Source of the DNA: Candidatus Limnocylindrales bacterium
GTDB taxonomy: Bacteria > Chloroflexota > Limnocylindria > Limnocylindrales > CSP1-4
DNA: 64,000 nucleotides
Reading direction: 5' to 3'
Assembly (NCBI GenBank): GCA_038251965.1
Contig: JBBSAV010000001.1
Coordinates: 28,627-92,626, forward strand
A program made the position numbers and the translations under genes. Below, in pieces: positions 27,641 to 31,180 of the stretch. Position 1 is the stretch's first letter. Each line of letters starts with the position of its first letter. The notes beneath the pieces were generated by a model. That model had not been told where the DNA came from, made no database searches, and saw nothing but the letters and a program-made list of their open reading frames with translations.

Positions 27641-30200
27641 CGCCGGGTCCATCTTCTCCCGGTCCATCATCGTCGGACCCGTCCTCGACATTCTCGCCGA
27701 CGCCGCGCTGTTCCGCCAAGCCCTCGCGGAAGACCGCGATCCCAGCCACCGTGTCACCCGCGTTGAGGCGCATCACGATGACACCACGCGCGGCACTGCC
27801 GTAGCGGTTGATCGATTGCACGTCGGTGCGCACGACCTGGCCGCTCGATGAGATGAGCAGCAGCTCTTCGTCGGTCTCGTCGACGAGCTCGACCGAGGCC
27901 ACCGTGCCACTCTTGGCACCCTCGAGCGAGATCAGTCTCACGCCTTGGCCGCCGCGGTGCTTGGAGCGGAACTCGCTACTGGCCACGCGCTTGCCGTAGC
28001 CCGTCTCGGTCAGCACCAGGATGTCATTGCCCTCGTTGATCACGCCCATGCCCACGACGCGGTCACCCTTGCGGGCGAGGCGGATGCCGATGACGCCGGC
28101 GGCGTCACGGCCCATGGCACGGACCTCTGTCTCGTTGAAGCGCGCGATGCGCCCCATGGCCGTGGCTAGCAGGATGTCATCACTACCCGAGGAGACCTCC
28201 ACCCAGGCCAGCTTGTCGTCGTCGGCGACGGTGATGGCGCGGATGCCCGTGGCGCGAACGCGCTCGAACTTCTCGATGGCGGTCTTCTTGACGATGCCGT
28301 TGACGGTGGCCATGACGAGGTTGTGGCCGGGCTCGAAGTCGGGCAAGGTGATCACAGCCAGCACTCGCTCACCCGATTCCACTTGCACGCCCTCAAGGTT
28401 GATGATGGGCATGCCCTTGGCCTGTCGGCTGGCGTCCGGGATAGCGTGGACCTTGGAGCTGAAGACGCGTCCGCGGTCGGTGAAGAAGAGGGCCCAGTCG
28501 TGGGTGCTGGCCACGATCAGGTGGCCAACGGCGTCCTCTTCCACGGTGCGGGCACCGATGATGCCCTTGCCACCGCGAGCCTGACGCCGGTACGTCACCA
28601 GCGGCTGGCGCTTGATGTAGCCACGCCGGCTGACCGTGACGACGACGTCCTCGTCGGCGATGAGATCGTCGTCGCTGAGCTCCTTGTCAGCACTGCCCTC
28701 GATCCTGGTGCGGCGGTCCTGCCCGTACTTGACGTCCAGCTCGCCCAGCTCGTCGCGGATGATCTGCAGCACCCGCTTGGGATTGGCGAGGATATCCTCC
28801 AGCTCGGCGATGCGTTGGATGATGGCGGCGTACTCGTCCTCGATCTTCTGCCGCTCCAGCGCCGCCAGGCGGCGCAGCTGCATCTCCAGGATGGCATTGG
28901 CCTGGATCTCGGAGAGACTGAAACGCGATATCAGGTTCCCGCGAGCCGTCTCCACGTCAGCCGATTCGCGGATGGTGGCGATCACGGCGTCGAGGTTGTC
29001 GAGCGCGGTCTTCAGGCCCTCCAGGATGTGCGCGCGGTCCTTGGCCTTCTGCAGGTCGAACTCGGTGCGCCGGCGAACGACCTCTCGTCGCCATTCGATG
29101 TGGTGGTGCAGGAGCTGCTTGAGCGAAAGGGTCTGGGGCTGGCCGTCCACCAGCGCCACCACGTTGGCGTTGAAGGCCATCTTCAGCGCGGTGTGCTTGA
29201 AGAGGTTGTTGAGCACCTTGCGCGGCGCCGCATCCTTCTTGCACTCGATGACGATGCGCATGCCGTCGCGGTCCGATTCGTCGCGCAGGTCGGCTATGCC
29301 ATCGACCTTGCCGGTCTTGACCAGGTCGGCGATCTTCTCCAGCAGCGTGGACTTGTTGACCTGGTAGGGGATGGCGGTGGCCACGATGGCGGTGCGGCCC
29401 GCACGGGTCTCCTCGAACGCCACCTGCGCCTGCATCACGACACGGCCGCGACCGTGGCGATACATCTCACGGATGGCGTCGATCTCTTCCCACTCGCCGG
29501 TCACCGGGTTGCGTCGACGGTCGTAGCGGAAGATAGTCCCGCCCGTCGGAAGGTCAGGACCGAGCAGGTGCTCACACAGCTGGTCGGTGTTCATCTCGGG
29601 GTCGTCGATGAGCGCCTGCGTGGCGCGGACCACCTCACCCAGGTTGTGCGGCGGGATGTTGGTGGCCATGCCCACAGCGATGCCGGTCGATCCGTTGATG
29701 AGCAGGTTGGGCAGCTTGGCCGGTAGCACCGACGGCTGCATGCGGGTGCCGTCGTAGTTCTCGACGAACTCGACGGTGTCCTTGTCGATATCCGACAGGA
29801 CCTCCGCCGCGATGGGCGTCATGCGGGCTTCGGTGTATCGCATGGCCGCCGCTGGGTCGCCGTCCACCGAGCCGAAGTTCCCTTGCCCGTCGATGAGCGG
29901 GAAGCGCAGCGAGAACTCCTGCGCCAGGCGCACCAGCGCGTCGTAGATGGCCTGGTCGCCATGGGGATGGTACTTGCCCATGACATCACCGACGATGGCG
30001 GCGCACTTGCGGTATGAGGCGCTCGAGGAGAGCCCCATCTCACTCATCGTATACAGGATGCGGCGATGGACCGGCTTCAGTCCGTCACGCACATCGGGTA
30101 GGGCGCGGCTGACGATCACGCTCATGGCGTAATCGAGATAGGCCGACTTCAGCTCCTCCTCGATAGGGACCGAGCGGACGTTTCCGACTGGGTCGGTCAT
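27618..30200 (-). CDS. gyrA: DNA gyrase subunit A (acidic Gly/Asp C-terminal tail)
   Basis: Catalytic Tyr region and GyrA-box beta-pinwheel repeats; ATGA overlap with the upstream gene. Confidence 0.95.
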
Positions 30201-31180
30201 GCGCGACTCCTCGTGTAGCGGTCACCCTGGCTGGCGACGGCGTCGTTGCTGGCGGTAAGTACGGCGGCGAATCCCGCGGCGCGTTCCGCGGCGATGCTGG
30301 TCGATGGGGCGGTAGCGTCGCGCCGGATGCCCGCGAGGCGAGTGCGCAAGGTGACGGCGAACTCTGCCGGCTGCGCCGAGAGCGAGTCGCGAATGACCCA
30401 GGCCCGGGCACCGTCGCGTCGCTCCGCGGCGATGATCGTCTCAGCTCCGAGCAGCGCCGCGGTCGCGGCAGGGTCGATGCGAGTCCAGTCGCGGATGGCC
30501 CAGGAGAGCGCCTTTTGGACCATGGGCTCAGGGTCACCCATGAGCAGGCGAACGAGATCGAGGGCGCGCTCGGCATCGTCCGAGCGGAGCATGTGTTGCC
30601 CAGGGCCGGCGCGATGCGGGATGGTGGCGAGTGTGGCGCCCACCAGCCGGCGCTCATACGAGCGTTCCGAGTAGACCAGCTGCTCAAGCTCGGCCCAACG
30701 GAAGCGCTCGGCCAGGACGCCGCGTGCCCACTCTTCGGCAAGGTAGTCGACCTCGATCCAGTCCCCTGCCCCGCGGCCCATGCGACGCAGCAGCTGCCAG
30801 GTCTGTTCAGGATCTTGCGCCAGCGAACGACGCAGGCAAGGCAGGGCGAAGAGGCGCAGGTCGCGATCCTCGGCCTCCACCAGGTGCTGGGCCAGTTGCA
30901 GTGCCGGGATGCTCGATCCTTCCTCGAGGCATCGTCGCAGCGGCCGACGGATGGCATCCAGCAGCGGTGCGCGGACGACGTAGTCGGCGGGCGTTCCGGG
31001 GCTCACGCGCGCCGCCATCAGGCTGAACTCGGGGTCGGCCAGCCCCTTCAGGCCCGCCCGCAAGGCCACCAGGAAGGCCGCCGGTTCATCGATGAGCTCG
31101 CCCATGCGTTCGCCCAGCGCCACGGCGTCTTCGTGATGAGCCGCGACGAAGGCGTCTGCCCTGGCGGCCGCGTCAGACAT
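30197..31180 (-). CDS. HEAT-repeat protein resembling DNA alkylation repair enzymes (AlkC/AlkD family), embedded between gyrB and gyrA
   Basis: All-helical; ...[13 protein letters not shown]... and [20 protein letters not shown] resemble the DNA_alkylation family C-terminus. Start ATG overlaps the gyrB stop (ATGTCTGA) and the stop overlaps the gyrA start (ATGA). Confidence 0.55.

Follow-up and report, generated by a model that had tools for sequence, protein, structure and literature searches.

The gene examined here, X, encodes a protein of 327 amino acids and lies between gyrB and gyrA in a stretch of 64,000 nucleotides (nt) of a Candidatus Limnocylindrales genome (contig JBBSAV010000001.1), which is referred to below as the window. 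With moderate confidence, X is read as a lineage-specific DNA glycosylase of the AlkD family, built of HEAT-like repeats (HLR) and expressed from the gyrase operon. Together with a gene for a hotdog thioesterase, X was inserted into the ancestral gyrB-gyrA junction of a stable parA-parB-gyrB-gyrA-prs block, as seen from a near outgroup, locus L032, which has the same block without the insert. The insertion occurred once, in one lineage of the Chloroflexota, which was probably Limnocylindria, and X has been inherited vertically since then. In the clade of the window, the thioesterase gene was later lost and X became tightly packed between the two gyrase genes, so that the ribosome-binding site of gyrA is now located inside the end of X. 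The position of X is conserved, but this does not imply that X and gyrase interact or act together.

Gene X and its AlkD-type protein

The DNA_alkylation family (PF08713) was the sole Pfam match of X, with a score of 64.8 bits (cut-off 21; E = 1.1e-17), and the match spans residues 44-246 of X, corresponding to positions 5-196 of the 213 positions of the profile. The initial annotation, which had quoted a motif that corresponds to residues 221-237, described an all-helical protein whose C-terminal half resembles the AlkC/AlkD-type glycosylases and suggested a hidden Markov model (HMM) search against this family; both the helical character and the likeness to AlkD hold. The AlphaFold2 model of X, built with 58 homologues, is confident (predicted local distance difference test score 92.3, predicted template modelling score 0.88) and comprises 17 helices and no strands; its HEAT-like repeats form an alpha-alpha superhelix, which in the fold comparison superposes on AlkD. 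Searches at the sequence level reached less far: no NCBIfam model was matched by X, a search of the PDB with the single sequence returned chance Hsp104 matches only, and a search with the X profile returned weak AlkD matches confined to the W227 region.

AlkD of Bacillus cereus (PDB 3BVS, 5CL4) is a non-base-flipping alkylpurine DNA glycosylase which shares PF08713 with X, and the AlkD sequence used for alignment was verified against 3BVS. Profile and HMM alignments place AlkD Trp187 and Arg190 on W227 and R230 of X, while in a near-global alignment by hhalign Trp109, Asp113 and Arg148 correspond to W141, D145 and R178; the mapping of W141 and D145 comes from a low-probability profile alignment that is backed by the fold match. 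The two arginines of AlkD, Arg148 and Arg190, are DNA-backbone contacts. The catalytic residues of AlkD are Trp109, Asp113 and Trp187 (PMC8626424), and it is these Asp and Trp positions, to be looked for according to the initial annotation, that align with D145, W141 and W227. Among sequences at least 59% identical to X, the five positions W141, D145, R178, W227 and R230 read WDRWR in 117 of 120, and the same reading was found in 125 of 130 sister-clade sequences at 45-59% identity. In the model of X, a helix at residues 50-59, between the equivalents of the A helix (33-47) and the C helix (71-87), lies at the place of the AlkD B-helix, which has been reported to be critical for damage recognition (PMC4433238). 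By every defining feature testable here, X belongs to the AlkD/PF08713 family. Another PF08713 protein of solved structure, the uncharacterised Enterococcus faecalis EF3068 (PDB 2B6C), is 12% identical to X and shorter, and adds no functional information.

The activity predicted for X from family homology is the excision of cationic N3/N7-alkylpurines. As in AlkD, the concave surface of X would bind duplex DNA with no base flipped out, and W141, D145 and W227 would cleave the glycosidic bond of the alkylated purine, by which base excision repair would start; X might possibly act on bulkier minor-groove adducts as well. In addition, X would share a transcript with the gyrase genes, and in the window clade its translation would be coupled to theirs, resulting in a presumably constitutive, gyrase-linked expression.

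As a gene, X is genuine and under purifying selection. The ratio of nonsynonymous to synonymous substitution rates (dN/dS) in pairwise comparisons with six orthologues is 0.20-0.28, next to 0.04-0.08 for the flanking gyrA and gyrB, and the homologues of X amount to more than 3,000 clusters at 90% identity. The GC content at third codon positions is 0.80 in X, 0.86-0.87 in the gyrase genes and 0.75-0.77 in parA and parB. An artefactual open reading frame (ORF) is ruled out by the dN/dS values, the HMM match and the conservation. Long shadow ORFs in other frames overlap X at 30085-30957 (minus), 30515-31216 (plus) and 30246-30674 (plus); such frames are typical of DNA with 67% GC, and nothing suggests that they are genes.

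The coordinates of X given in the initial annotation (Table 1) are correct, and the gene is on the minus strand. The overlap with gyrB claimed there stands for the ORFs, which share 8 nt, but not for the codons named: gyrB ends in GAT GTC TGA, and the ATG of X, 5 nt ahead of the gyrB stop codon, is itself clear of that codon. At the other end, where X reads CGC GCA TGA, its TGA does overlap the gyrA start as had been stated, in the sequence ATGA. The GyrA box is a mark of gyrase rather than of topoisomerase IV, and the enzyme is assigned as gyrase because GyrA carries this box (QARGGKG); the C-terminal tail of GyrA is acidic and rich in Asp, Glu and Gly (27618-27700, minus strand).

Insertion into the gyrB-gyrA junction

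The gyrB-X-gyrA linkage, which the initial annotation proposed to follow by phylogenetic profiling, holds through the whole detectable family, and all X relatives examined, down to 38% identity, are located between gyrB and gyrA (about 30 loci). An exhaustive search of representative sequences gave 265 clusters at E ≤ 1e-3. The lower-ranked representatives turned out to be frame-shifted calls of the X locus, and some of these calls continue into gyrA, gyrB or the thioesterase gene; their reading as paralogues located elsewhere is ruled out. In databases, the homologues are named 'DNA alkylation repair protein' or 'AlkD' and assigned to Candidatus Limnocylindrales, phylum Chloroflexota, while the genome records of metagenome-assembled genomes (MAGs) bearing X read 'uncultured Chloroflexia bacterium'. 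The label of X is therefore already in place, and what is unusual is the lineage-wide position between gyrB and gyrA.

The window clade comprises eight loci in which X is 60-89% identical, the gene order is parA-parB-gyrB-X-gyrA-prs, and the same 8-nt and 4-nt overlaps recur; the X ORF is intact in seven of them and frameshifted in one (L004). In L004, a long-read MAG, X (L004:6001-6985) carries a frameshift of 1 nt close to position 6270 and is called as a 253-aa protein (P0017), which represents either a sequencing error or a pseudogene. In the sister clades, with X 38-52% and GyrB 70-79% identical, most loci show the order gyrB-thioesterase-X-gyrA. The additional gene encodes a PaaI-like hotdog thioesterase (Pfam 4HBT) and overlaps both gyrB and X (for example, L011:5450-6001). 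It is carried by L009, L011, L012, L014, L016 and L018-L031, apart from L022, with a truncated copy in L021; like L022, the window clade and L015 do not have it. In a rough, neighbour-joining, midpoint-rooted tree of X, the loci without the thioesterase gene fall into two separate parts, one formed by the window clade with L022 and the other by L015.

A metagenome scan was anchored on the C-terminus of GyrB, so that loci were not chosen for containing X. All 14 loci with a full-length GyrB at least 73% identical to that of the window carry the insert, the contig reaching X in 11 of them and ending in or just after the thioesterase gene in the other 3. At a GyrB identity of 70%, L032 has no insert, and gyrB is followed by gyrA after about 130 nt within the order parA-parB-gyrB-gyrA-prs-orf88-secA. 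The statement of the initial annotation that gyrB and gyrA are normally adjacent is thus borne out in the near outgroup and in the same syntenic block. At loci more distant than L032, gyrA either directly follows gyrB or is unlinked to it.

The tight packing of X against gyrA is a feature of part of the family. The ATGA coupling of X with gyrA is present only in the window clade, L022 and L014, whereas the other sister clades have spacers of 23-112 nt, together with a separate Shine-Dalgarno sequence and a GTG start codon for gyrA. At its 3' end, X of the window clade contains a 29-nt block, CAGGGTGACCGCTACACGAGGAGTCGCGC, which is near-identical in DNA across the loci even where synonymous divergence (dS) is near 1. 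This block encodes the conserved 10-residue C-terminal tail of X and holds the gyrA Shine-Dalgarno sequence, but it exceeds the length which that sequence needs. Because the block is near-invariant at the DNA level, the conservation of the C-terminal tail is at least partly a nucleotide constraint. RNA structure in the 29-nt block was not significant (z = 0.27).

Catalysis, retention and the gyrase operon

Several observations weigh against a plain repair glycosylase. The hhalign probability of X against AlkD is 27-53%, and outside the W227 region the alignment is weak alone and leans on the fold match. X is only 13-14% identical to AlkD and about 90 residues longer, with an extra helix at 3-28 and further helices within 272-323 (272-281 and 296-323). 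Within the B-helix region, Arg26 of AlkD aligns with R58, but Lys29 aligns with P61. The family also has motifs of its own, RWAELEQL at 161-168, DGxRAWVIRD and GIRRxxxAPSTS, and the first of these, the best conserved motif of the family, is no known catalytic position of AlkD. HLR proteins with an AlkD-like fold may also be inactive, as has been reported for AlkD2 and AlkF/AlkG (PMC4433238). Furthermore, X is never missing, while the 4HBT gene inserted together with it is absent from two parts of the tree and truncated in L021. At least seven deep lineages (clusters at 50% identity) have replaced the Trp/Asp/Trp triad yet kept X in place: at L014, L015 and L016 (proteins P0138, P0182 and P0168) an intact ORF without the triad lies between gyrB and gyrA, and further triad-less proteins are P0132, P0137, P0141 and P0143. 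The permanent retention of X and the keeping of triad-less variants hint at a selected role which is not necessarily catalysis, and no other signs of a function besides ordinary repair were seen.

One such role, put forward in the initial annotation from the position of the gene, would be that of a gyrase-binding or lesion-sensing factor, and it is retained here as a minority possibility. In this case, the binding partner of X would be GyrA, GyrB or the gyrase-DNA complex; X would remove or mark alkylated bases that would trap gyrase, or else modulate gyrase, and its encoding between the two subunits would ensure joint production with the enzyme. Such a factor is considered unlikely. Its best arguments are the retention of X between gyrB and gyrA at all of the loci while the 4HBT gene was repeatedly lost, the persistence of X in place in triad-less lineages, the translational coupling on both sides in the window clade, and the extra N- and C-terminal helices and the non-catalytic motif RWAELEQL, which could serve as a partner surface. 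However, the stoichiometric production with gyrase deduced in the initial annotation does not follow from the overlaps, since about one quarter of the same-strand neighbouring gene pairs in the window can overlap likewise, by 1-8 nt, including the ATGA of parB and gyrB and five or six further 4-nt overlaps, and since the coupling with gyrA is not kept in most sister clades. The gap that X occupies is shared in most clades with the thioesterase gene, which has no obvious DNA role. The prs and parAB genes are as syntenic as X, and even L032, the outgroup, has the entire parA-parB-gyrB-gyrA-prs-orf88 block in the same order, so the conserved position of X is expected from inheritance alone. No homology of X to the gyrase regulators YacG, GyrI/SbmC or Qnr/MfpA was found with Pfam, NCBIfam or the fold, an HLR solenoid; these proteins were named in the initial annotation as a concept only and share neither sequence nor fold likeness with X. 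Nor did any independent, convergent case of a PF08713 gene linked to gyrase come up. In the literature searched, neither a link of AlkD or HLR proteins to gyrase nor the conserved gyrB-X-gyrA arrangement appeared, and nothing relevant was retrieved for Limnocylindria combined with gyrase or for a glycosylase combined with the gyrase operon. It is unlikely that X is a dedicated gyrase accessory of Limnocylindria-like Chloroflexota with a role outlasting the loss of the triad, in which it would clear or flag alkylated bases at the DNA segment of gyrase, or tune gyrase via the extra helices and the RWAELEQL surface.

Genes other than those of the gyrase subunits occur in or beside co-expressed gyrase genes elsewhere. 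The recF gene lies in dnaA-dnaN-recF-gyrB, a repair gene within a replication-gene operon. The gyrB-gyrA junction of Caldalkalibacillus thermarum has been found to contain a 4.7-kb insert of unrelated genes (PMC7561548). Such an insert, like the purely housekeeping surroundings of X, is a further argument against reading a gyrase function from the position. The X insert differs from both in being conserved across a deep lineage and overlapped at both ends in the window clade.

X may also be compared with HLR proteins that have an AlkD-like fold but no glycosylase activity. If X were a non-catalytic DNA-binding protein like AlkD2 or AlkF/AlkG, its Trp, Asp and Trp residues would serve in DNA binding. 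In favour of this, one arginine, R177, is invariant throughout the family and two others, R178 and R230, nearly so, and these arginines and the non-catalytic family motifs are kept in the triad-less variants too; X has no basic residue at the position that aligns with AlkD Lys29. Nevertheless, a non-catalytic protein seems improbable, as the triad is near-invariant in the two main clades, where about 240 of 250 sequences have it complete, and the tryptophans and the aspartate tend to vanish together in divergent lineages, as would be expected of one functional unit. AlkD2 of Streptococcus mutans is without the B-helix, and AlkF/AlkG of B. cereus carry a beta-hairpin, which they use to bind branched DNA (PMC4433238), whereas X has the helix at 50-59 and its model contains no strands according to DSSP. 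YtkR2 and C10R5, which are related to AlkD and share its three catalytic residues, have been reported to act as self-resistance glycosylases in genotoxin gene clusters (PMC8626424), and X, having arrived together with a thioesterase-family gene, might by analogy have been acquired with that gene from a biosynthetic cluster, as a self- or xenobiotic-resistance enzyme against a genotoxic natural product. Such an origin is very improbable: YtkR2 and C10R5 have a specialised genomic context, but X sits in a housekeeping operon, with core housekeeping surroundings and no biosynthetic or mobile genes nearby in all loci, and it has been vertically inherited across a deep lineage. Plasmid homologues of X were not found.

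If X is the AlkD-family repair glycosylase preferred here, that family would gain a divergent, as yet uncharacterised clade with conserved motifs of its own and some 90 residues more than AlkD. The locus also provides a clean, dated case of two foreign genes that entered a gyrBA operon and became fixed there, with the ribosome-binding site of gyrA inside the inserted gene. These points are of use for the annotation of Chloroflexota genomes and for thinking on operon evolution, and they are not surprising. X would matter more if its strict retention reflects a gyrase-linked role, given the lineages without the catalytic residues, and a gyrase accessory would be the first example of an HLR glycosylase scaffold recruited to a topoisomerase.

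Features of the operon and its surroundings

Table 1. Features of the gyrase operon and of gene X, in window coordinates.
Feature	Position	Strand	Basis or remark
X, 327-aa AlkD-type HEAT-like-repeat protein	30197..31180, stop codon included	minus	ORF with ATG start
gyrB	31173..33146	minus	probably starts at the ATG at 33131; Pfam domains checked in orthologues
gyrA	27618..30200	minus	GyrA box QARGGKG and acidic C-terminal tail; Pfam domains checked in orthologues
Overlap of gyrB and X, 8 nt (ATGTCTGA), with X start and gyrB stop codons	31173..31180	minus	identical in L001-L007
Overlap of X and gyrA, 4 nt (ATGA), with X stop and gyrA start codons	30197..30200	minus	conserved in window clade, L022 and L014
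Near-invariant 29-nt block, 3' end of X	30201..30229	minus	holds gyrA Shine-Dalgarno GAGGAG (30207-30212)
Stretch matching Pfam DNA_alkylation, residues 44-246	30443..31051	minus	Pfam match
W141-x3-D145, aligned with AlkD Trp109 and Asp113	30746..30760	minus	hhalign alignment
R178, aligned with AlkD Arg148	30647..30649	minus	hhalign alignment, family conservation
W227...R230, aligned with AlkD Trp187 and Arg190	30491..30502	minus	HMMER and hhalign alignments
parA	34015-34857	minus	upstream, same tightly packed block
parB	33128-34012	minus	upstream, same tightly packed block
Overlap of parB stop and likely gyrB ATG, ATGA	33128-33131	minus	
prs (phosphoribosyl pyrophosphate synthetase) and conserved 88-aa ORF	26304..27757	minus	downstream, same block

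A scan of 26-36 kb found no promoter or terminator on the operon strand, which fits one long transcript; for a Chloroflexota genome this is weak evidence. The 88-aa ORF downstream of prs (orf88; 26304-26570, minus) is syntenic in the sister clades and L032 with 47-52% identity, and matched no Pfam or NCBIfam family. In the window clade, the orientation of secA (23150-26272, plus) with respect to the gyrase block is the reverse of that in L009, L011, L012 and L032, and therefore rearrangements do happen at the edge of the block.

The wider neighbourhood consists entirely of housekeeping genes, including, besides secA, two release-factor genes, ftsE/ftsX, a Ctp protease gene, the transfer-messenger RNA (tmRNA) gene, mreD, the gene for PBP2 and rodA. 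Both release-factor genes encode class-I peptide release factors with PCRF and RF-1 domains; the one at 21615-22709 (minus) adjoins ftsE/ftsX and the Ctp protease gene, and the one at 43994-45091 (plus) is overlapped by a DUF1385 gene by 4 nt. The tmRNA gene is located at 15494-15869 (minus) and matches Rfam RF00023 with 129.6 bits.

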